The notes beneath the pieces were generated by a model. It was given only the letters and a program-made list of their open reading frames with translations. It did not search any database and was not told the origin of the DNA. A stretch of DNA of 64,000 nt from Candidatus Sumerlaeota bacterium (GTDB lineage: Bacteria; Sumerlaeota; Sumerlaeia; SLMS01; JAHLLQ01). Both the position numbers and the translations under genes were made by a program. Positions 990 to 61,522 of this stretch are shown here, one piece after another; within the stretch, counting starts at the first letter, position 1; each line of letters starts with the position of its first letter. The DNA lies in NCBI GenBank assembly GCA_030156535.1, contig JASGMJ010000009.1, positions 5,237 through 69,236 of the forward strand, given 5' to 3'.

Positions 990-2408
990 CTATTCCACGA
1001 TCCAGCTCTCTGCCGTTTTCTCTGCGGCCAGCACGCCGATTCCCGTCCCCAGGATGTTCTCTCCGCGGCTGGCATCCCACGTGCCCTGATTCGCCATACG
1101 CACGGAATACTCAGGGCGGTCGCGCAGGGAGACGGCGTTGTCCGGCAGCCACAGAACCCATCGCGCTCCCTGGGCGGCATCCACTTCACGTGGCAACGTG
1201 AACAAGCCGTCGAGCACGATCTCGCCGTCCTCTGCCAGCCAACGCCTCGGGTCCGCGTCCTCCATCGGCCACTCGGCAAGCACCTCCGTCCCCAATATCA
1301 GCCGCAGCACCACGGGCCGCGGCTGGTACATCGGTGCGAAGCCCACGTTGCGCACCGTTACGGAAGCCGCGAAGGTTTCGCCACCCCGCACTTCATCCGG
1401 CAACTGCGCCCGTACCAACTCGAACCGGTAGCCCAGCCGCCGCTCGATTTCCGCATAGCACCCGCCCGTCTGCCATTCCGCGATCACGTCGGGGTGGTAG
1501 ACGCGGTTGAGGTACGTCGCGTGAAAGCGCGCCAGTTCGGCCAAGGCATTCGGGCACGTGGTGTACTCCGAGGGCGCACAGGTTTCCCCGCCCATCGGCA
1601 CAAAGCGCGTGTCGGCCGCGAGGAACGCCTTTTGTTCTTCCACGCTTGATGACTCGTAGGTCCCCTGATCCGTTGAGGAGGAAAGAAAGCAGTCGTTGTG
1701 GTGGCCGATCCGCGCGACGGGCGCGCTCGTGAACGCCGTTTCCGCCGTCACCTGCTCACCGGGAAAGAGCGCCTCGTTTCCGAATGCGGGATCCTTGAAC
1801 CACGGACGCCGCACCTGCACGAAGGCATTCGAGGGAAGGAATGCCAGCAGCGCCGAAATCACCGCACGCCGGTTCTCCACCGTCGGCAGATTGTAGCGCA
1901 CTTCGACGCCTTCGGGTCCAAAGTTCGTGGTGCTGTGCCACTCGCCCCATGCACCGATCACGCCCGCCTGCACGAAGGCGATCACGTCGCTGTTGCGCGC
2001 CAGCATCGGCTGCAACTGCAACAGGTGCGCCTGCAGGCGCGAGAAGGACACGTCGTCCTCGTAGCCGTCATTGTAGACGATTCGGACAACCGCCTTCACG
2101 CCCGCATCCCGCACGCGCTCCAGTCCGGATTCCAGATTGTCCAGATGAAGCGGCGAAATCGACGTCGTGCGGAACGCCGAAAGATCCACCCGCGTGTAGA
2201 CCAGCGTCACCCCCTGCGAGCGCATTGCCGCGTAGTTCGTCGTCAGGTCGCTGAGCGAGCCATTGTCGGCGCCGACGAGATAGAAACCGCGCTCGGGATT
2301 CAGGATCGCCGCCGTGGTGGGGGAGTACGTGTAGTCTTGAATTTCGGCTTGGCCTGCCATGGGGAGAACGACCGCCAGAAGGAGAATGATGGTGCGGGCA
2401 AGCGGCAT
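990..2408 (-). CDS. Secreted DUF4832/DUF4874-like (glycoside-hydrolase-like) protein. The true start is the internal Met of the listed 828-aa ORF.
   Basis: Signal peptide MPLARTIILLLAVVLPMAGQA follows a CAT (ATG) at 2406-2408. The upstream part of the long ORF is antisense to a clear epimerase gene. The protein body looks like a TIM-barrel (WGEWH, HNDCF). Confidence 0.6.
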   Translation of the reverse strand: MPLARTIILLLAVVLPMAGQAEIQDYTYSPTTAAILNPERGFYLVGADNGSLSDLTTNYAAMRSQGVTLVYTRVDLSAFRTTSISPLHLDNLESGLERVRDAGVKAVVRIVYNDGYEDDVSFSRLQAHLLQLQPMLARNSDVIAFVQAGVIGAWGEWHSTTNFGPEGVEVRYNLPTVENRRAVISALLAFLPSNAFVQVRRPWFKDPAFGNEALFPGEQVTAETAFTSAPVARIGHHNDCFLSSSTDQGTYESSSVEEQKAFLAADTRFVPMGGETCAPSEYTTCPNALAELARFHATYLNRVYHPDVIAEWQTGGCYAEIERRLGYRFELVRAQLPDEVRGGETFAASVTVRNVGFAPMYQPRPVVLRLILGTEVLAEWPMEDADPRRWLAEDGEIVLDGLFTLPREVDAAQGARWVLWLPDNAVSLRDRPEYSVRMANQGTWDASRGENILGTGIGVLAAEKTAESWIVE

Positions 2409-3479: not shown

Positions 3480-4462
3480 TCGAGGATCGGGAAATCGTTC
3501 AGCTCGAGGCGACGGGCGAACGGGTCAAGCTCCTGGTCCGCCGCGGCGGCAACGCCGGCGAGGCCAACCGCCTGCGCTCCTTTCTCGGGCACAAGGGCTC
3601 GCCCTACACCGAGCACGTGAACGACTTCCTCAAGAACGGCAGCCGTGGCCTGTACGAAGGCCTCGAATGGCGCTTCTACCTCGCCGAGATCGATGGCGTC
3701 TACGCTGCGAACATCTGCACCTGGGAGTACAAGGGCGTCGGCCTGCTCGGGCACGTCTTCACGCATCCCGTCCATCGCCGCAAAGGCCTCGCGCGCCTTC
3801 TCATGGATTTCCTCCACGACGATTTCGAGCAGCGCGGCGGGCACACCATGCAGCTCAACACCCGGCCGGATTCCTACCAGCAGAACTTCTACGCCAGCCT
3901 CGGATACGAACGTCTCGCCGCCGCGCCCGGCTCCATGTTCCGGCTTTTTGGCGAGGACCACACCGAGCCCGACAGCGACGTCGCCCCGGTTGTCTTTGAG
4001 TGGCGCCACTGGCCCACGCTGCACCAGTCGCTGCTGATGGAAGGGCGCCCTTTCGTGCGCTCCGTCGGCATGGGGATTTACGGACCGGGATCCGCCGAGG
4101 GGCGGCTGCTCGACGTCTTCTATCGCGGTGGAATCTCGCGGCACCGCGAATCGCTTTGCGTGCTGGAGGCCGCCGCCTCGCGCGTCGTCGGTTGTGCCAG
4201 CATCCTCCCCGATCGCCTCTGGGGGGGGAAGGGGACGCACAAAGTTCTCGACGTCTATGTCGAGTCCTTTCACCGCCGGTGCACGGGCGACCTGGTGGCC
4301 ACAGTCCTCGAGAAGGCCACAGGTCCACTCCTCTGGTACCGCGAGGTGGAGGAGGACGAGACCGTGAATCCCGCGGCCTTCGGGTTCGAGCCCGCGGGCT
4401 ACCTGCCGGAGTCCGGCGACGGCCGGGACATTGAAATCTGGCAGTTGGCCGCCGGGAAATAA
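3476..4462 (+). CDS. GNAT-family N-acetyltransferase (possibly tandem GNAT)
   Basis: Acetyl-CoA pocket motif HVFTHPVHRRKGLARLLM. It is coupled to the epimerase by an ATGA overlap. Confidence 0.55.
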   Translation: MIEDREIVQLEATGERVKLLVRRGGNAGEANRLRSFLGHKGSPYTEHVNDFLKNGSRGLYEGLEWRFYLAEIDGVYAANICTWEYKGVGLLGHVFTHPVHRRKGLARLLMDFLHDDFEQRGGHTMQLNTRPDSYQQNFYASLGYERLAAAPGSMFRLFGEDHTEPDSDVAPVVFEWRHWPTLHQSLLMEGRPFVRSVGMGIYGPGSAEGRLLDVFYRGGISRHRESLCVLEAAASRVVGCASILPDRLWGGKGTHKVLDVYVESFHRRCTGDLVATVLEKATGPLLWYREVEEDETVNPAAFGFEPAGYLPESGDGRDIEIWQLAAGK

Positions 4463-12738: not shown

Positions 12739-12837
12739 ACGGCAGGATCCGCAGCTCGTTCTTCATCCCACCGTGAGCTTCCCGCTTAGCACGGGCACGC
12801 TGAACACGCGACGCAACCCAATGCTTCTGGACCGATT

Positions 12838-17702: not shown

Positions 17703-17719
17703 GAAAGTCGTCCCCCAAC

Positions 17720-29984: not shown

Positions 29985-30070
29985 CCACTCTTTCCGCCAT
30001 TGCCACCACTCGTCCCGGTGCTTAGCACGGGGCGACGCAACCCCGCACTCCATCGCGCAGGCAGCTTCCC

Positions 30071-31881: not shown

Positions 31882-32547
31882 CTAGGCAACCACGTCCTCG
31901 ACGTTCGCCACGACGTTCGCCAGGTTGGCGTCTGGCATTTCGCGAATCGTGGACTTCCGCCCGCGGCGGCCTGCGCGATGAGTCTTCTTGTAGGGAACAC
32001 CGCCGGTCTCGTAATCCGCCAGCACCACCCAGTCGAGCGGCACGACAATCTCCACTGCCTGGCCCACCACGGAAATCGCGGAAGCCACGCGTGCTTCGCG
32101 CTTGTTGCGCCAGACAACGATCCCCTCCACGCCTTCCAGCGGCCCCGTCACAACGCGTGCTCGTCGTCCGCGCTCGGGGATGGGGCCCAGCCGGACATCG
32201 CGCTCAAGCCCGGCAACGTAGCGCACGACGCGCATCTCCTGCTCGGGAATCGCCGAGGGCGTACCCGGACGCATTCCCACCAGATAGCGAGCCTCCGGGA
32301 TTCGGGCAGTGGATGCCGAGAGTCCCTGGCTCATCCGTGCGAGAAAGAAAACATACGAGGGAAACAGTGGCTCGGCTGCGGCACCAGCGGCACCGCCTTT
32401 CACCGTTGGCACCAGAACTTCCTCCACGGCCGGAAGGTCTTGCAGGGCATCCGCAACCCGGCACTCGGCGCCCGTGCGCGTATGCACGGCATACCAACAC
32501 GGTGCGCCACCGGATTCACGTGCTGTACTGGAAGAGGCTACTGCCAT
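31882..32547 (-). CDS. NusG-paralog transcription antiterminator (UpxY/LoaP/RfaH-like specialised NusG)
   Basis: NGN domain WYAVHTRTGAEC and KOW motif VVTGPLEGVEGIVV. It lies at the distal end of the polysaccharide export operon. Confidence 0.65.
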   Translation of the reverse strand: MAVASSSTARESGGAPCWYAVHTRTGAECRVADALQDLPAVEEVLVPTVKGGAAGAAAEPLFPSYVFFLARMSQGLSASTARIPEARYLVGMRPGTPSAIPEQEMRVVRYVAGLERDVRLGPIPERGRRARVVTGPLEGVEGIVVWRNKREARVASAISVVGQAVEIVVPLDWVVLADYETGGVPYKKTHRAGRRGRKSTIREMPDANLANVVANVEDVVA

Positions 32548-41132: not shown

Positions 41133-41442
41133 GTTGAGCTGCCTGTCCTATATTGAGATAGTGAAATGCTTAAAGACGAGAATGGATACGCCTCGACTTG
41201 CCGGTGATGAGAACCGCTCCCATGCCCCGTGTCAAGCTGGAAGGGAGACTTTTTTGCAGATACTTCTCGCCGATCCACAAATCGAAGAGATTTTCTGTCT
41301 GATACTTTGCATTCTGATTCTATTGGGCTTGAGGGTGGGTGGAGATGCGTGTCGCCGGGCTCTGAAGCTGGCTGCTTAGTTGTCGGGGCCAAAAAAAATC
41401 ACATTCGGCACCCTGAATCTATCGCGCTCCACATTGCCGTCA

Positions 41443-42042
41443 TCAGGCGGGATCTTCTGCTGCGCCATCAGCCGATATCATGGTGGACTTCTCTGGACGC
41501 CCGGCGGCAAGACCTCTCCGCCGCCCTATAATTGAAGCTACCCTCCTTGCCGCTCCCCAGGCAATCAGGAAAGCGCCCCATCCTGCAATAATCCCCCCCC
41601 AAGCCCACTGGAGGTCCTCCCATGTTGCGTTGCGTTTTGGGATGAACTGTTGCCGATACTCATCATAAGCGGGAATCAGGAGCACCGCCAGCAGCGGAAT
41701 CCCCAGTGCCACCCACTTCCACCGCCGCCCCAGAAGGCGTATTCCCAGAAACCCCAGAAAACCGGCCAGCAACCCGTAGGGCACGGAGACGGCGAAGTGG
41801 AGATAGTAGTCGATATGCCTGGGAGGGGTCTTGCGCCATCTCGGGGGAGTCAGTGCATGGACGATCCGGTTGCTCCGGATTTCCTTCTCATACCGTTGCG
41901 TCGTCGCAACGGGGGAGGTGGCCAATGTCGTGGTGAAGGCAAAGTAGCCTCCCAGAATACAGAGGGCCAAGCCGAGCAGCACGCTCAACCTAAGGTGACT
42001 CCGGCGAGACTGATTATTCTTTTGTGGGGAACATTCCTGCAT
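41443..42042 (-). CDS. Small polytopic membrane protein, possibly VanZ-like
   Basis: Four predicted TM helices. The assignment is weak. Confidence 0.35.
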   Translation of the reverse strand: MQECSPQKNNQSRRSHLRLSVLLGLALCILGGYFAFTTTLATSPVATTQRYEKEIRSNRIVHALTPPRWRKTPPRHIDYYLHFAVSVPYGLLAGFLGFLGIRLLGRRWKWVALGIPLLAVLLIPAYDEYRQQFIPKRNATWEDLQWAWGGIIAGWGAFLIAWGAARRVASIIGRRRGLAAGRPEKSTMISADGAAEDPA

Positions 42043-42130
42043 TGTCGGGGCAACTTCCCTATGTTGTCATTCTTCCGGAAAGAGCAACTCGCGGGCCGGA
42101 GAGTCAGCACGGCTTTCGTGCCTGCAATCT

Positions 42131-42192
42131 CGTGTCAAGCCGCGCAACGTGTCCACCCTTTTGCATATGCAAGCACAACGTGGCTTGACACG
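42131..42192. promoter_or_regulatory. Nested palindromic element in a 440-bp divergent intergenic region. A 14-bp inverted repeat (cgtgtcaagccgcg / cgtggcttgacacg, 1 mismatch) flanks a perfect palindrome TTGCATATGCAA.
   Basis: Seen directly. Each IR arm carries TTGACA (a -35-like hexamer) facing a divergent gene. Confidence 0.35.
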
Positions 42193-42483
42193 CGAAATCC
42201 TCCGCCCTTACATCCCCCCGCCACTGCGAGGGGCGTCGCGTTCAAGGCTCCATGGATTGTTGTTTTCCATGTCGAAGCCGTTCTGCTCTCCGTCTCTCCG
42301 TCTCCTGAAATGACTCTCTCGAGCCTTTTCCGTTTGTTCGGAAATCGGCAACGGGGAAGATTTCGTCTTCCCTCACCCACTTGATTCCCAATCCTGAAGT
42401 CTTGTTCGAGAGCACCTCGCATTGCGCTGCGCCAGTTGATCTGGCTTCTGTGACAGTAACAATTCCCCCAAGGTAGGAAATTA

Positions 42484-43845
42484 ATGACAGCAACAGCTTC
42501 TCTTCTCGATCAATCCTTGAATCCTGCTGCCACGCAACTCATCGACAAAATCCGCAACCGCACCGCAGTGATCGGTGTCATCGGCCTTGGCTATGTCGGG
42601 CTTCCGCTGCTCATCGAGTTCCACAAGGCTGGCTTTCCGGTTATTGGGCTCGACATCGACACCAGCAAAATCGAGAGCCTGCGTGCCGGCAAGTCCTACA
42701 TCCTCCACATCCCCGGCGAGAACGTCGCGGCGATGGCTGCGAGCGAAAAGTTCTCCGCCTCCTCCGACATGGCCGACGCGAACAAGTGCGACGCGCTGCT
42801 TCTGTGCGTTCCGACGCCACTAACCCATCACCGCGAACCGGACATCACGTATGTCACCTGCACCTGCGAGAGCATCGCTCCGGCCATGCGCGCCGGCCAG
42901 ATCGTCATCCTCGAATCCACAACCTACCCGGGCACGACCGATGAAGTCATGGTGCCGATTCTGGAGAAGGGCTCGGGCCTGAAGGCCGGGCGCGACTTCT
43001 TCGTCGCCTACTCGCCCGAACGCGAAGACCCCAGCAACAAGAGCTTCAGCACGGCAACGATCCCAAAGGTCGTCGGCGCCATGACGCCCCAGGGACTCGA
43101 AGCGGCCAAGAGCCTCTACGATGCCGTCGTCGTGAAGACGATCCCCGTTTCCTCCACGCGCGTCGCCGAAGCCACCAAGCTGATGGAGAACATCTTCCGC
43201 TGCGTCAACATCGCGATGGTCAACGAACTCAAAGTCGTTTTCCAGCGGATGGACATCGACATCTGGGAGGTCATCGAGGCCGCCAAGACCAAGCCCTTCG
43301 GCTTTATGCCCTTCTATCCCGGCCCCGGCCTGGGTGGACACTGCATCCCCATCGACCCCTTCTATCTGACGTGGAAGGCGCGCGAGTACGAAACGCCCAC
43401 CCGCTTCATCGAACTCGCTGGTGAAATCAACACCGAGATGCCCAAGTACGTCGTTTCGCAGACGATGGAAGCTCTCAACGAGCAGGGCAAGGCACTCAAG
43501 GGAAGCCGCATCCTGCTCATCGGATTGGCCTACAAGGCTGATGTCGACGACTTGCGCGAAAGCCCCACCTTCAAGCTCATCGAACTCTTCGAGAAGCGCG
43601 GCGCCGAAGTTCTCTTCCACGACCCGCACATTCCCGAAATCATGATGACGCGTGAACACGCCGCCCTTGCAGGCCGCAAATCCGTCCCGCTGGACGAGGC
43701 TGCGAAGTGCGACGCAACGGTCATCTCCACCGCGCACGCCGCCGTCGATTACGCCAAGCTTGGTAAGATCGCCAAGGTCATCGTCGACACGCGCAACGCC
43801 ATGGTGGGTGTCACCGACGCCACCGCCGCCATCCACAAAGCCTGA
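42484..43845 (+). CDS. UDP-N-acetyl-D-mannosamine/glucosamine 6-dehydrogenase family (nucleotide-sugar dehydrogenase, WecC/Cap5O/WbpA-like)
   Basis: N-terminal Rossmann IGVIGLGYVGLP, catalytic-Cys region GGHCIPIDP and a UDP-binding C-terminal domain. Confidence 0.9.
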   Translation: MTATASLLDQSLNPAATQLIDKIRNRTAVIGVIGLGYVGLPLLIEFHKAGFPVIGLDIDTSKIESLRAGKSYILHIPGENVAAMAASEKFSASSDMADANKCDALLLCVPTPLTHHREPDITYVTCTCESIAPAMRAGQIVILESTTYPGTTDEVMVPILEKGSGLKAGRDFFVAYSPEREDPSNKSFSTATIPKVVGAMTPQGLEAAKSLYDAVVVKTIPVSSTRVAEATKLMENIFRCVNIAMVNELKVVFQRMDIDIWEVIEAAKTKPFGFMPFYPGPGLGGHCIPIDPFYLTWKAREYETPTRFIELAGEINTEMPKYVVSQTMEALNEQGKALKGSRILLIGLAYKADVDDLRESPTFKLIELFEKRGAEVLFHDPHIPEIMMTREHAALAGRKSVPLDEAAKCDATVISTAHAAVDYAKLGKIAKVIVDTRNAMVGVTDATAAIHKA

Positions 43846-43938: not shown

Positions 43939-44949
43939 ATGAAGATTCTCGTTACCGGAACGGCCGGTTTCATCGGCTTCCATCTTGCCAACTCGCTGCT
44001 CGATGACGGCCATGAAGTCGTCGGACTCGACAACTTCAATCAGTACTACGCCCCCGTTTTGAAGGAACGCCGTCACGCCATCCTCGAAGCACGCGAAGGC
44101 TTCCGCCCGTTCAAGTGCTCGCTCGAGGACTCTGATCGCGTCCTTGCCTGCATGAAGCAGGAGCGCTTTGACGTGGTCGTCAACCTGGCCGCACAGGCCG
44201 GCGTGCGCCACTCGCTCACACATCCCTTCGATTACATGCGCTGCAATCTCGAAGGGTTCCTCAGCATCCTCGAAGGCTGCCGTCACTCCGAAGTCCCGCG
44301 ACTGGTGTACGCCTCCAGTTCCAGCGTCTATGGCAGCAACACCAAGCTGCCCTTCAGCGAGTCCGACAGCGTCGATACTCCCGTCAGCCTCTACGCCGCC
44401 ACAAAGAAGGCCAACGAGCTGATGGCCCACACCTACACGCACCTCTACGGCCTCCAGACCATCGGCCTGCGGTTCTTCACGGTCTACGGCCCGTGGGGAC
44501 GCCCCGACATGGCCATGTGGCTGTTCGCCGACGCCATTCAGCAAGGCAAGCCCATCAAGGTCTTCAACCACGGCGACATGCGCCGCGACTTCACCTACAT
44601 CGCAGAAATTGTCGATGGCGTGAAGCGTTGCGTTGTCACCGAAGGCCTCGACAAGTACGAAGTCTTCAACCTCGGCAACCATCGCAGCGAAAAGCTGATG
44701 GATATGATCGAGTACCTCGGAAAGTGCATGGGCAAGCAGCCCGAAATGGAACTGCTTCCCATGCAGCCTGGCGATGTGCCCGCGAGCTTTGCCGACATTG
44801 ATCGCGCCCGCACGAAGCTGGGCTTCGAGCCGCGCACGACCATCTTCGACGGCGTCTCCGCATTCGTCGAGTGGTTCAAGGAAAACCAGGACCTCGTCGA
44901 CCAGGTACGTGCCTGGGAATCCCGGCCGCAAACCGGCACAAAGGTCTGA
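43939..44949 (+). CDS. NAD-dependent epimerase (UDP-glucuronate 4-epimerase-like, GalE/WcaG family)
   Basis: ILVTGTAGFIGFHL and the YAATKKANE catalytic motif. Confidence 0.9.
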   Translation: MKILVTGTAGFIGFHLANSLLDDGHEVVGLDNFNQYYAPVLKERRHAILEAREGFRPFKCSLEDSDRVLACMKQERFDVVVNLAAQAGVRHSLTHPFDYMRCNLEGFLSILEGCRHSEVPRLVYASSSSVYGSNTKLPFSESDSVDTPVSLYAATKKANELMAHTYTHLYGLQTIGLRFFTVYGPWGRPDMAMWLFADAIQQGKPIKVFNHGDMRRDFTYIAEIVDGVKRCVVTEGLDKYEVFNLGNHRSEKLMDMIEYLGKCMGKQPEMELLPMQPGDVPASFADIDRARTKLGFEPRTTIFDGVSAFVEWFKENQDLVDQVRAWESRPQTGTKV

Positions 44950-44960
44950 GCAACAAACCC

Positions 44961-46256
44961 ATGACATCTCCCCTTATCCGCATCGAAGGTCCCACGCCGC
45001 TCTTCGGCGAAATCGACGTGCGTGGCGCCAAGAACGCCGCGCTGCCGCTCCTCATGGCCGCCGCGGCAGGCTCCGCGCCAGTCACACTGACGAACCTGCC
45101 CACGGAACTCCGTGACATCCAGGCCGAGATCGAAGCCCTGCGCTATATCGGCTGCAACGTCGAGCAGGCCGACGGCACCGCCACGCTCGCGCTCTCCGAC
45201 CCCACGACCACCGAGCTTCCCCCGGAAATCTCCGGCAAGATTCGCACATCCCTACTCTTCCTTGGTCTTCTGGCCGGCAGATTCGGACACGCGAAGATCA
45301 CCATGCCGGGGGGGTGCGATCTCGGTGACCGCAAGTTCGACCTCCATCTCGAAGGCCTGCGCCTTCTTGGGGCCGATATTCACGTCGACGAGCACTCCAT
45401 CGAAGTCACGGCCAAAAAGCTGAAGGGCGCCGACATTCACTTCTACCTTCCTTCAACCACCGGGACGGAGAACGTGATGATTGCGGCGTGCTTTGCCGAG
45501 GGCCGCACGCGCATCTTCAATGCGAACACCCGCCCCGAAGTCGCCGACCTTGCCGTCTGCCTCAACGCGATGGGAGCACGCATCTCCGTGCGCAACCGCG
45601 TCGTCGAAGTGGAGGGCGGCCGCCTTCTTGGTGGTGCCACGCACAAGGTGATGAAGGGCTGGGACGAAGCGGTGACGTACATTCTCGCCGCGGGACTCTC
45701 CGGGGGGGAAATCTGTATCCGGGATTTCAGCACCGACTTCATCCGCAACGATGTCGCCTACATGCGCGACGCCGGACTCGATGTTTTCGAATGGGGCGGA
45801 AATCTCTATGCCAGCGGCAAGGGCAAGAAGCTCCGCGCCTTTGATCTCTTCACGGCTCCCTATCCGGGAGTAAACTCCGACATGCAGCCGCTCTTCGCCG
45901 CCTTCGCCAGCAAGTGCGAGGGCTCGACGAGTGTCACCGACCAGCGATTCACCGAACGCTTCCAATACGCCGCCGAACTCCGCAAGATGGGCGTGCCGAT
46001 CGAATCCTACGGCAATTGCGCCGTGATCGAAGGACCTGCCCGCCTCAAGGGCGCCAATGTCCGCGCGCTCGATCTGCGTTGCGGAGCCGCCCTTGTCATG
46101 GCCGGCCTTGCCGCGGAAGGCACGACGGTCATCGACAATTGCCAGCAAATCTATCGCGGCTACGAGCTTCTCGTTCCGCGCCTTCGTTCGCTTGGGGCCA
46201 ATATCAGCGGCGAGACCGAAGAAACAAATGTCCGGTTGCAACCCTCTCATGCCTGA
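44961..46256 (+). CDS. murA: UDP-N-acetylglucosamine 1-carboxyvinyltransferase paralog (MurA-like enolpyruvyl transferase) embedded in the polysaccharide cluster
   Basis: KNAALPLL motif and active-site Cys loop GGCDLGDRKFDLH. ~430 aa, EPSP-synthase-fold repeats. Confidence 0.85.
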   Translation: MTSPLIRIEGPTPLFGEIDVRGAKNAALPLLMAAAAGSAPVTLTNLPTELRDIQAEIEALRYIGCNVEQADGTATLALSDPTTTELPPEISGKIRTSLLFLGLLAGRFGHAKITMPGGCDLGDRKFDLHLEGLRLLGADIHVDEHSIEVTAKKLKGADIHFYLPSTTGTENVMIAACFAEGRTRIFNANTRPEVADLAVCLNAMGARISVRNRVVEVEGGRLLGGATHKVMKGWDEAVTYILAAGLSGGEICIRDFSTDFIRNDVAYMRDAGLDVFEWGGNLYASGKGKKLRAFDLFTAPYPGVNSDMQPLFAAFASKCEGSTSVTDQRFTERFQYAAELRKMGVPIESYGNCAVIEGPARLKGANVRALDLRCGAALVMAGLAAEGTTVIDNCQQIYRGYELLVPRLRSLGANISGETEETNVRLQPSHA

Positions 46257-47208
46257 ATCCGGCGCGCTTCTCAAGCCGCCGGGTGAACACATCGTCGGCA
46301 CTGTTCGCTGCAACGAGCCACTCTGTCTCCACGCAAACTGGGAGATTGGCGGGCCTGCGGACTACTTGCTCGAACCTGCCAGTCCCGCGCAGCTTGCCGC
46401 CGGACTGCAATGGATTCGCGAGAACTCTCTTCCCTTTGCCATCATTGGTGACGGCACAAACATCCTCTTTCCCGACGAGGGGTTTCGTGGCGCGATCATC
46501 AAGATTGGCCGCCGGATGAGCAGCCATCGCATCGAGGGCATGACGATCGACGCGCAGGCAGGCGCGTGGATTCCCAGTCTTGCACGCATTGCCGCCGCCG
46601 CCGGCATTGGTGGCATGGAGCACACGATCGGCATTCCAGGCACGCTGGGCGGACTTGTTCTGATGAATGGCGGCAGCCTGCGGAAAAGCATCGGGACCAT
46701 GGTGCGCCGCGTCTGGGCACTTGATCGCGAAGGCAATGAGCACCAACTCGATCATGAGGAGTGCGCCTTCGAGTACCGCAAGTCCGCGCTCCAGTCCAAC
46801 GGTCTCATCGTCACGCGGGTGCTTCTCGAAGGTACGCCGCGCGATCCCGGCGAATCCCGGCGCGAAATGCTCGACATCATTCGCAAACGCCGCCTGAAGT
46901 TTCCCAAGAAGCTCCCGAACTGCGGTTCCGTCTTCATCAGCCGCCCCGAAATGTACGACACCTACGGCCCTCCGGGAAAGATCATCGAGGAGACCGGCCT
47001 CAAGGGGACGCGTATTGGCGGCGCCATGATCCCCGATCTGCACGCGAATTTCATCGTCAACGCGGGAGGCGCCACGGCGGCCGACATCAAGAGCATGGTT
47101 CGGCTCGTCCGGGAAAAGGTGCATGCCCGCACCGGTTTCTGGATGATCTGCGAAGTGCGCACTCTCCTGCCCGACGGTTCTTTCCGCCCCGTCCACGAGG
47201 TCCTCTAG
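46228..47208 (+). CDS. murB: UDP-N-acetylenolpyruvoylglucosamine reductase (MurB) paralog. An alternative start is at 46249.
   Basis: FAD-binding PCMH domain (FAIIGDGTNILF), and C-terminal KLPNCGSVF and GGAMIP..HANFIVN MurB motifs. It overlaps murA. Confidence 0.85.
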   Translation: MSGCNPLMPESGALLKPPGEHIVGTVRCNEPLCLHANWEIGGPADYLLEPASPAQLAAGLQWIRENSLPFAIIGDGTNILFPDEGFRGAIIKIGRRMSSHRIEGMTIDAQAGAWIPSLARIAAAAGIGGMEHTIGIPGTLGGLVLMNGGSLRKSIGTMVRRVWALDREGNEHQLDHEECAFEYRKSALQSNGLIVTRVLLEGTPRDPGESRREMLDIIRKRRLKFPKKLPNCGSVFISRPEMYDTYGPPGKIIEETGLKGTRIGGAMIPDLHANFIVNAGGATAADIKSMVRLVREKVHARTGFWMICEVRTLLPDGSFRPVHEVL

Positions 47209-47787: not shown

Positions 47788-49165
47788 TACCGGGCCGTCA
47801 CGGCAACGGCCTCCCCAGGAAACCTTTGCAAAGTCCAGTGTCCAGACGATCGGTGTTCGCTTTATCCTTCTCGTGGCGAACTTCGGAACGGGCATCATTA
47901 CGGCACGCTGGCTCGGCCCCGAAGGTGTTGGCCTGTGCGCCCTGCTCTACATGATCAAGGACGTTGCCTTTCGATTCGGCAACCTTGGCATCGGGACGGC
48001 CTTCTCGTTCTTCATTGCGCGCAAGCTCGCCGGCACGCGGCGCCTCACTTTTCTCGCCTGGGTTCTCGGAGCAACTCTCGCGCTCGTGAGCAGCGGGGTT
48101 CTCCTCGCCATTCGCAAGCAGGCCTGGAGCCCCTGGAACAACGTCGATCTGCCGCTGTTCCTCCTCGCGTTGGGCACCGTTCCCGTGATGTATCTCACGA
48201 CGTTCTTCCAGCGCATCCTCAGCGGCCAGCTCCGCATTACACCCGTCAATGTTTCCAGCATCATCGGCGACTTCGCTCAGTTCGCCGGGCTTGTTGTTTT
48301 CATCGTGATTCTGCCTTGGGGGATTGCTGGCGCCGTTCTCGCCCTCCTTGTCAGCGACCTTCTCCGGCTCTCGTACCTTGTCCTGACGATGATTCGATTT
48401 CCATTCGATGACGAGGACAAAGCCCACGCCGACGACGCAAAGCCTGCGAGGGAATTGATTCCAGCCATTTGGCGCTATGGCCGCTGGCAGTACCTCATTA
48501 TGTTCGCCATGTATCTGGTCGAGGAGATGCCCATTCTCCTGCTCAAGGGAATCACGATGAACGATTCCTTTGTCGGCTTCTTTGCCCGCGCCCGTGGGCT
48601 GGGGCGCCAGACACGCCTGATGACGATGCCGATTTCACAGGTGCTGTTCCCCTTTACGGCGGCCTCCGAGGAAAAGGTCGCCGTTCGCCGCACCAACATG
48701 TTGTGCCGAAACCTCCTGATGATTTCGACTGTCGGCATCGCCTTTTCCTGTCTCATCATCGAGCCCGTCATTGTGTTCCTCTACGGCGAGGAGTTCCGCA
48801 CGGCGGCGTCGGTTTTCTATGTCCTGGCGCCAGGCGTGATCAGTTGGCCAATCGGCCATTTCCTGGCCACGCATCTCTCCGCCTCGGGCGAGCCGCACAA
48901 GGTCTTCTGGGCCTCGCTCCCTCCCGTTATTGTCGGCGGCATTGTTGGCTACTGGCTTGTTGGCGCCTACGGCGTTGTTGGCGCCGGCATGACGGCGACG
49001 ATCATCTACACCCTGCAAACATTCGTGCGTCTCCTGCAATACCACGCAACCTATACCACCACGTACCGCGAGATCCTTGTTGTTACCAGCGAGGATCTCG
49101 CGCGCTACAAGCAGCTCCCATCGCTCGTCATGGGCCGTCTGCGCAGAAAGCCCGCTTCTTCATGA
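47738..49165 (+). CDS. Wzx-like oligosaccharide flippase (MOP superfamily polysaccharide biosynthesis protein). The true start is probably downstream of 47738, possibly non-ATG.
   Basis: 12-14 TM helices and a PST-family-like composition. It lies within the glycan cluster and has a 50-nt overlap with the upstream gene. Confidence 0.65.
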   Translation: MPEFQHVLSGGYPVNRSTGPSRQRPPQETFAKSSVQTIGVRFILLVANFGTGIITARWLGPEGVGLCALLYMIKDVAFRFGNLGIGTAFSFFIARKLAGTRRLTFLAWVLGATLALVSSGVLLAIRKQAWSPWNNVDLPLFLLALGTVPVMYLTTFFQRILSGQLRITPVNVSSIIGDFAQFAGLVVFIVILPWGIAGAVLALLVSDLLRLSYLVLTMIRFPFDDEDKAHADDAKPARELIPAIWRYGRWQYLIMFAMYLVEEMPILLLKGITMNDSFVGFFARARGLGRQTRLMTMPISQVLFPFTAASEEKVAVRRTNMLCRNLLMISTVGIAFSCLIIEPVIVFLYGEEFRTAASVFYVLAPGVISWPIGHFLATHLSASGEPHKVFWASLPPVIVGGIVGYWLVGAYGVVGAGMTATIIYTLQTFVRLLQYHATYTTTYREILVVTSEDLARYKQLPSLVMGRLRRKPASS

Positions 49166-61253: not shown

Positions 61254-61522
61254 CCTCATTGTCCGCTTGCGCCTGTTTGTTCGCTTCAAGTAGGCGCTTC
61301 ATTGAAAACACATTTTTGTGTCACAAGTTAGCACTGGACACGCGGGAAATGCTTCCACTAATGTCCGCTCCACTATTGAGTTAGCACTTGGTCACTAACC
61401 CACATAACGTTCCTACAAAGCAATGAACCTCGGTTAACGTCAGTGCAGGGTGGCGAAAGACCCGGCTGCTCTACACCAATTCAGAATCAATCGAATCACG
61501 GACAGGCGGGCGGCTATGCCTG
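61254..61522. promoter_or_regulatory. Lower-GC intergenic region with a direct repeat AGTTAGCACTGG / AGTTAGCACTTGG and the partial palindrome GTTAGCACTTGGTCACTAAC. Probable promoter/operator for the wecG-wecB unit.
   Basis: Seen directly. The TTAGCAC core recurs in other intergenic sites (12786, 30022). Confidence 0.3.

Follow-up and report, generated by a model that had tools for sequence, protein, structure and literature searches.

Back-to-back divergent promoters form a classical class of divergently transcribed bacterial units in the classification of Beck and Warren, and in the -10 elements of sigma-70 promoters the A at position 2 is nearly invariant. The E. coli bio operator, which lies between divergent genes, is a contiguous dyad of ~40 bp that is bound by one BirA dimer.

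Specialised NusG paralogs load in the leaders of long polysaccharide and polyketide operons (PMC11685472, PMC12691694). RfaH loads at the ops element GCGGTAGC and UpxY at opsX, an element of ~40 bp that includes YGCGNAGCR together with an upstream pause hairpin (PMC11685472, PMC12691694). The loading element of LoaP is a small UNCG RNA hairpin (PMC12691694).

Here we describe a 62-bp element (42131-42192) in a stretch of 64,000 nucleotides from a Candidatus Sumerlaeota bacterium, referred to below as the window. The element is best read as an ordinary promoter region of known kind in a poorly known phylum and not as a new type of operator. We put the probability at about one half that it constitutes the core of a divergent region with back-to-back promoters, whose two arms are outward copies of an extended -35 box, GCTTGACACG. 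With the classical divergent sigma-70-type promoters it shares the outward TTGACA pair between divergent genes and, on the right, a spacer of 17 nt (18 in a relative). It differs from them in that position 2 of the second hexamers, TTACAT and TCTCAT, is not A, in that the left unit has no second hexamer, and in that the box exceeds the -35 hexamer, with 10 identical bases at three sites. Like the bio operator, it contains an imperfect inverted repeat that lies between divergent biosynthetic genes and overlaps promoter elements; unlike in the bio operator, a gap of 34 nt separates the arms, the inner palindrome lies off-centre, one arm alone is conserved, and a regulator gene is absent nearby.

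The element lies in an intergenic region of 441 bp (42043-42483) that forms the hinge of a polysaccharide cluster of ~31 kb. Its parts and the two flanking genes are:

41443-42042, minus strand: VanZ-like gene, 199 aa, the left neighbour; its Pfam match is below the curated cut-off, its match to NCBIfam vanZ_1 above the cut-off of that model
42131-42144, minus strand: left arm CGTGTCAAGCCGCG; it bears the 10-mer GCTTGACACG, read from 42140 to 42131, with TTGACA from 42138 to 42133 (TGTCAA on the plus strand, 42133-42138), and faces the VanZ-like gene
42142-42182, plus strand: direct repeat of the form GC(G/A)CAACGTG, with GCGCAACGTG at 42142-42151 and GCACAACGTG at 42173-42182, 31 nt apart and abutting the arms
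42161-42172, symmetric: inner perfect 12-bp palindrome TTGCATATGCAA, ending 12 nt before the right -35
42179-42192, plus strand: right arm CGTGGCTTGACACG, bearing the 10-mer GCTTGACACG at 42183-42192 with the hexamer TTGACA at 42185-42190
42484-43845, plus strand: UDP-N-acetyl-sugar dehydrogenase gene, 453 aa, the first gene of the ~21-kb plus-strand arm of the cluster

The leftward arm of the cluster encodes the VanZ-like protein, a secreted protein of 279 aa, a protein of 436 aa, Wzy-like and Wzz/tyrosine-kinase-like proteins, a family-4 glycosyltransferase, a Wza-like exporter, and a NusG paralog. The rightward arm starts with the UDP-N-acetyl-sugar dehydrogenase, an epimerase, MurA-like and MurB-like proteins, an acetyltransferase, a flippase, a PGA_cap protein, and an asparagine-synthase-like protein; it continues with a second Wzy-like protein, glycosyltransferases, an oxidoreductase, a heparinase II/III-like protein, a WecG-like protein, and a UDP-GlcNAc 2-epimerase. 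These polysaccharide gene units on both sides bear out a preliminary description of the sequence, which had placed the element in the divergent control region of a glycan cluster. The distance to the VanZ-like start given there, 120 nt, needs correction: from the start of the element to the ATG at 42042 we measured 89 nt. From the end of the element to the ATG of the dehydrogenase gene (42484) the distance is 292 nt. Proteins of the window, the VanZ-like one among them, agree at 100% identity with NCBI entries of a Candidatus Sumerlaeota MAG, from a contig of 147,880 bp. Small ORFs within the intergenic region showed neither conservation nor coding-type GC3.

Some further features of the gene units were seen in passing. 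The MurA-like gene (EPSP_synthase fold) and the MurB-like gene (44871-47208, plus strand) adjoin the UDP-GlcNAc dehydrogenase and epimerase genes, and the pair suggests an enolpyruvyl or muramic-acid-like sugar in the polymer. As listed, the two ORFs overlap by ~200 nt, so that the start of one of them is probably further downstream. All copies of the T-run TTTTTTG/CAAAAAA in the window are intergenic (6/6, at 17719, 31824, 37311, 40227, 41250, and 41390). Because several of them stand just after gene ends, the runs are probably terminator tails; the one at 41390, for instance, follows the VanZ-like stop and, if a terminator tail, would make the VanZ-like gene a single-gene unit.

The arms CGTGTCAAGCCGCG and CGTGGCTTGACACG are complementary at 13 of 14 positions across a gap of 34 nt, and the outer repeat can be extended to 17 nt at 15/17 (42128-42195). 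The preliminary description was accurate in reporting a 14-bp inverted repeat with one mismatch, a TTGACA in each arm in opposite orientations, and a perfect 12-bp palindrome between the arms. Both hexamers face outward and are 46 bp apart between the divergent genes, and the box centres of the two arms are separated by 52 bp, i.e., about five helical turns. The two symmetries had been termed nested palindromes. Both of them exist, but their centres, 42161.5 for the outer repeat and 42166.5 for the inner palindrome, are 5 bp apart; as the centres are not concentric, the two do not form one nested dyad.

The window contains inverted repeats with arms of 14 nt (at most 1 mismatch, gap of at most 60) at 2 distinct places, compared to 0.9 expected. 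The outer repeat, having been chosen post hoc from 64 kb, is therefore not significant window-wide by itself, and what is notable about it is only its position in the 441-bp intergenic region. The other place, CTGGAACAACGTCG / CGACGTTCTTCCAG at 48133-48211 (13/14, gap 51), is of equal quality and lies within the flippase gene, showing that such repeats arise without a regulatory setting. Since perfect 12-bp palindromes also occur at the chance rate (28 observed versus 25.3 in dinucleotide shuffles), the inner palindrome is unremarkable as well. The arms additionally agree at 5/7 of the positions that flank the 10-mer, whereas a third copy of the 10-mer elsewhere agrees with them at only ~1/7. 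This extra likeness hints weakly at a pairwise constraint on the two arms or at a local inverted duplication.

The exact 10-mer GCTTGACACG is present three times in the window, at 42131-42140 (minus strand), 42183-42192 (plus strand), and 41228-41237 (minus strand). The expectation is 0.18 copies per 64 kb, and at least 3 copies were reached in 0.25% of shuffles. All three copies are intergenic within the cluster, and each is aimed at a downstream gene. TTGACA as such is enriched in non-coding DNA, with 4-5 of its 13 copies falling into the 5.4% of the window that is non-coding. The features around the right arm and the third copy, with the Sumerlaeia MAG ACE_SUM1 (L001) for comparison, are:

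42208-42213, plus strand: -10-like TTACAT, 17 nt after TTGACA (18 in L001), inside the conserved block CCTTACATCCCC
42206-42251, plus strand: conserved block with CCTTACATCCCC, comprising the -10-like element together with ~30 nt from the beginning of the putative leader, including TGCGAGGGGCG at 42225-42235
41189-41237, minus strand: third GCTTGACACG unit, with the 10-mer from 41237 to 41228, TTGACA from 41235 to 41230, a 17-nt spacer, TCTCAT from 41212 to 41207, and GTCGAGGCG from 41197 to 41189

The third unit lies ~96 nt upstream of the ATG (41132) of the gene for the 279-aa secreted protein. In the whole window, the pattern TTGACA (at most 1 mismatch)-N16-18-T[TCA][ACT]CAT has 2 matches; one is the right arm and the other the third copy, and the spacer is 17 nt in each case. 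The non-coding enrichment, the conservation of the hexamer in L001, and its recurrence at the third unit with the same spacing substantiate the earlier view of TTGACA as a -35-like element. On this sequence evidence, the promoter of the UDP-GlcNAc-dehydrogenase operon very probably has its -35 box in the right arm, and we infer a plus-strand start near G42220, which would give a leader of ~264 nt. The third copy is proposed as the promoter for those genes of the minus-strand arm that follow the VanZ-like gene. TTACAT has the T at position 6, and at position 2 it has T and not A; TCTCAT likewise lacks the A of the canonical -10 at this position, and neither site was called by a consensus scanner. 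This would mean either that the housekeeping sigma factor of the lineage tolerates a non-A position 2 or that the sites are served by a dedicated sigma factor. Reading the flanks as sigma-54 or sigma-32 promoters was discarded upon inspection, as the spacing is wrong.

L001 is the only independent species with the divergent VanZ-like/dehydrogenase arrangement. Logan contig L082 carries the same intergenic sequence as L001 and hence does not provide a second comparator. Between the window and L001, the dehydrogenases are 83% identical, the VanZ-like proteins 39%, and the products of the next gene 38%; as the two organisms are this distant, unconstrained non-coding DNA should be scrambled. The sole significant intergenic similarity links 42206-42251 to L001 3643-3691 (78% over 50 nt, blastn E 9e-5). 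The block CCTTACATCCCC is exactly kept, as is GCTTGACA upstream of it, whose distance to TTACAT is 17 nt in the window and 18 nt in L001; the gap from GCTTGACA to CCTTACATCCCC is 15 nt in the window and 16 nt in L001. The exact TTGACA of the right arm (42185-42190) is retained in L001 at 3621-3626. For the left arm, there are two conflicting alignments to L001, one to a minus-strand TTGACA (3540 to 3535) and the other to AATCGTGTCC (~3505-3514), and its homology is ambiguous. Relatives with a dehydrogenase identity of at most 71% (L002, L083-L090) have other genes upstream and lack the motif. A query of the protein database with the VanZ-like protein returned nothing beyond the source protein and a single fragment of 61% identity, whose 1-kb contig includes 34 nt of DNA upstream. 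A search with the N-terminal 110 aa of the VanZ-like protein yielded no closer fragment. A metagenome scan with the VanZ-like protein gave no match.

In the divergent-promoter reading that we favour, the inverted repeat would exist because each arm bears the same extended -35 box, GCTTGACACG, facing outward. The right arm, for which the case is largely made, would direct transcription of the plus-strand polysaccharide operon through TTGACA at 42185-42190, the 17-nt spacer, and TTACAT at 42208-42213, from a start near 42220 and with the leader of ~264 nt noted above. The left arm would face the VanZ-like gene as a second site at which the same RNA polymerase holoenzyme, or a factor that recognises the box, could dock; as a promoter, it would be weak or in need of an activator. 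The third box, with the same spacing to TCTCAT, would drive the rest of the minus-strand arm. As this third copy stands alone and has no inverted partner, the box appears to act as a single unit and not as a half-site.

Support for this promoter reading comes from the fact that GCTTGACA-N17/18-CCTTACATCCCC and ~30 nt of the leader are kept despite the 39% and 38% identity of flanking proteins. Against it stand the left arm, which lacks a -10 and whose counterpart in L001 is ambiguous, the off-canonical TTACAT and TCTCAT that escaped the scanner, the comparator, which is one independent species, and the likeness of the arms beyond the 10-mer, which a pure promoter model does not require. No -10-like hexamer is found at 15-19 nt from the left TTGACA (GAAAGC, AAAGCC, AAGCCG, AGCCGT, GCCGTG). 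Of the divergent promoters claimed in the preliminary description, the right one is thus supported, with a conserved TTGACA and a second hexamer at 17/18 nt, and the left one, without a -10, is plausible, so that the pair is only half shown. The left arm, whose box lies 91 nt from the VanZ-like gene, may act as a promoter that is weak or depends on an activator, serve the reader of the box as another docking site, or be a mirror copy without function.

If the last of these applies, the right arm alone is functional, as a -35, and the left arm and the palindrome are products of chance or the relic of a small inverted duplication, so that the symmetry has no function. The VanZ-like gene would then use another promoter, e.g., ATGACA-18-GACAAT at 42070 to 42041. 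We regard this as rather unlikely. It is in line with the frequency of such repeats, which are expected about once per 64 kb and a second of which sits inside a gene, with the chance frequency of the palindrome, with the missing -10 of the left arm, and with the lack of clear conservation of the left arm and the palindrome in L001; moreover, the scanner places a different promoter-like site on the minus strand beside the VanZ start. On the other hand, the left arm repeats the exact 10-mer that recurs at two promoter-like sites and is aimed at a gene 91 nt away, the intergenic region of L001 also has a minus-strand TTGACA (3540 to 3535), and the -10 of the alternative site proposed by the scanner overlaps the annotated start codon.

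If the divergent-promoter reading is right, the element would be the first concrete promoter for this uncultured phylum, with TTGACA as a canonical -35 and T-N-N-CAT as an unusual second element, and it would mark the control point of an exopolysaccharide/capsule cluster of ~31 kb. Such a promoter would help the annotation of Sumerlaeota genomes and the expression of the cluster in another host; it would change no concept.

The symmetry of the element had been taken as a sign of a shared operator. In such an operator, a dimeric or tetrameric regulator bound to the inner palindrome and/or to both arms would co-control the divergent promoters, an arrangement that we consider improbable. Dyad symmetries do exist, the 52-bp distance between arm centres, about five helical turns, would bring the arms to the same face of the helix, and the likeness of the arms reaches past the common 10-mer. 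However, the palindrome is neither over-represented nor repeated nor conserved: a further copy of TTGCATATGCAA was found neither in the window at up to 2 mismatches nor in the 91 fetched loci, and no counterpart of TTGCATATGCAA or of the sequence between the arms could be aligned in the intergenic region of L001. The solitary third box argues against half-site behaviour, and a simple dimer site would not have a gap as wide as 34 nt. Pfam annotation of the ~31-kb cluster (32.5-63.6 kb) revealed biosynthesis and export genes plus the NusG paralog and nothing else, with no gene for a DNA-binding or helix-turn-helix regulator. The shared operator is therefore not supported. Beyond its symmetry, we found nothing that would indicate a role for TTGCATATGCAA. 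A role of the palindrome as UP element was dismissed, as the most AT-rich stretches of the intergenic region lie elsewhere.

What keeps the operator proposal alive at low probability is a symmetric element of L001 just upstream of its own promoter. At 3570-3607, L001 has a perfect 15-bp inverted repeat, CAAATCCGCCTCCGA/TCGGAGGCGGATTTG, with a loop of 8 nt (z = -7.0), which is unrelated to the palindrome of the window and ends 13 nt before the -35, compared to 12 nt for the palindrome. L001 also has three copies of TCAAATCCGCC. They belong to (T)CAAATCCGCC, present at 3535-3607 as two direct copies 32 nt apart and one inverted copy, a sequence that is absent from the window. The direct-repeat spacing of TCAAATCCGCC in L001, 32 nt, compares to 31 nt for GC(G/A)CAACGTG in the window. 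A palindromic element just upstream of the promoter may therefore be a conserved architecture with diverged, species-specific sequence.

The repeat is also predicted to fold well as RNA. As plus-strand RNA it reaches -32.3 kcal/mol (z = -5.9), and the mismatch turns into a G-U pair on this strand only; as minus-strand RNA it has z = -3.2 and as DNA z = -4.0. Intrinsic (Rho-independent) terminators resemble it in their stable GC-rich predicted stem. In contrast to these, the loop measures 34 nt, neither strand has a U-tract or T-run by the repeat, and on neither strand does a gene end upstream of it, and we rejected this assignment. We consider it very improbable that the hairpin acts as a stem-loop of RNA within a leader whose transcription starts further upstream, where it would serve pausing or antiterminator loading for the NusG paralog, or as a barrier between the divergent units. 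The fold on both strands would fit such a role, a strong hairpin of another sequence (z = -7.0) occupies the equivalent place in L001, so that structure could persist without sequence, and the cluster encodes a LoaP/UpxY-like NusG paralog, a kind of factor that uses leader hairpins (PMC12691694, PMC11685472). Yet a U-tract is absent on both strands, and from its place upstream of the conserved -35/-10 blocks, with which it overlaps, the hairpin would not be transcribed as a unit in the best model; its 3' arm is itself the conserved -35, and a conserved plus-strand promoter further upstream was not found. The LoaP hairpin is a small UNCG hairpin and unlike this repeat (PMC12691694). In addition, the distance to the ops-like box described below differs between the two species (29 vs 54 nt), and Rfam gave no matches at gathering thresholds in the window; for 42000-42520 it returned only a spurious lncRNA match (E 1.8).

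A conserved RNA structure of the leader was not borne out either, with z = -1.7 for the fold of the whole leader and a trivial consensus fold of the two sequences. A hairpin, GGGGAAGAUUUCGUCUUCCCU, is seen at 42353-42373 (plus strand), ~+134 to +154 from the putative start. L001 has a shorter one, GGGC-UUUUCUU-GCCC, at 3798-3812 (~+142 to +156), and the two may be a conserved structure.

More interesting than the inverted repeat is the combination of a NusG paralog with a conserved promoter-proximal box in the leader:

31882-32547, minus strand: NusG paralog gene with an NGN domain, the last gene of the minus-strand arm
42225-42233, plus strand: CGAGG box TGCGAGGGG
3661-3669 of L001: CGAGG box TGCGAGGCG
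41197 to 41189, minus strand: CGAGG box GTCGAGGCG

The paralog scores 68 bits with the NCBIfam model for LoaP, 51 with UpxY, 32 with NusG, and 27 with RfaH, all below the curated cut-offs, and by its sequence it is likely a processive antiterminator for the cluster. The box, (T/G)(G/T)CGAGG(C/G)G, follows the second hexamer by 9-11 nt at both promoter-like sites and at the promoter of L001. It matches the core YGCGNAGCR of Bacteroides opsX at 7-8 of 9 positions, i.e., with 1-2 differences (motif from PMC11685472). The pattern TTGACA-N28-42-[GT]CGAGG[CG]G hits these sites alone in the 776 kb searched, a result that is descriptive, as the pattern was derived from the same sites. By analogy with opsX, the CGAGG box may be a loading or pause site.

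As in the ops, opsX, and LoaP systems, a putative leader of ~264 nt precedes a glycan operon of ~21 kb and the cluster encodes its own LoaP/UpxY-like NusG paralog, and the box at both promoter-like sites resembles the YGCGNAGCR of opsX. Different from these systems, the box would lie at only ~+5 to +15 from the putative start and deviates from the opsX consensus at 1-2 positions, and the paralog stays below the curated cut-offs of every named family. The JUMPstart / RfaH ops element GGCGGTAG is absent from the leader, as judged by inspection. The link between the NusG paralog and the CGAGG box concerns the leader and not the inverted repeat, and is a lead rather than a finding. Taken further, the GCTTGACACG boxes, T-N-N-CATC at 17 nt, and (G/T)CGAGG(C/G)G 9-11 nt further on might constitute a cluster-specific module, through which the NusG paralog would be recruited near the promoter on both arms, with the left box as a docking or looping site that couples the arms. 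We hold this for a long shot. If true, the module would be the first ops-like system described in Sumerlaeota, and its promoter-proximal loading would be more lambda Q-like than RfaH-like.

A metagenome scan for the promoter pattern GCTTGACA-N17-18-CCTTACATCCCC, in which the gap is wider than the true 15/16 nt, retrieved one contig, L091. At 1004-1041 (minus strand), this contig carries GCTTGACACGCGA-N11-CCCTTACATCCCC, with 13 + 13 bases identical to the -35/-10 blocks of the window and 2 nt more spacing (19 nt between hexamers). By a rough estimate, ~2 chance matches are expected for the 20 fixed bases of the scan pattern, and L091 matches six bases more. The site overlaps the end of an opposing ORF and adjoins eight copies of a 21-bp tandem repeat, CCGGCCACCGGCCACCGCTCA (1142-1334); the contig is otherwise unrelated. 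On viral contigs, the correctly spaced pattern GCTTGACAN{15,16}CCTTACATCCCC had no match.

Further promoter-like sequences were noticed elsewhere in the window. Upstream of the WecG-like gene, TGGACACGCGGGAAAT...TAATGT at 61335-61366 (plus strand) resembles the TTGACACGCGAAAT...TTACAT of the right arm and may be an internal promoter of the plus-strand arm. Two unrelated intergenic regions, 12784-12820 and 30020-30046 (both plus strand), have GCTTAGCACGGG...CGACGCAACCC in common; one site is located upstream of a gene encoding 1274 aa, the other upstream of a gene of the DAHP-synthase family. TTAGCAC is non-coding at 4 of its 5 copies, the other two being at 61328 and 61381. Judging from these sequences, the element may be a variant -35 box of the form GCTT(G/A)(A/G)CACG or a separate regulatory or RNA motif.
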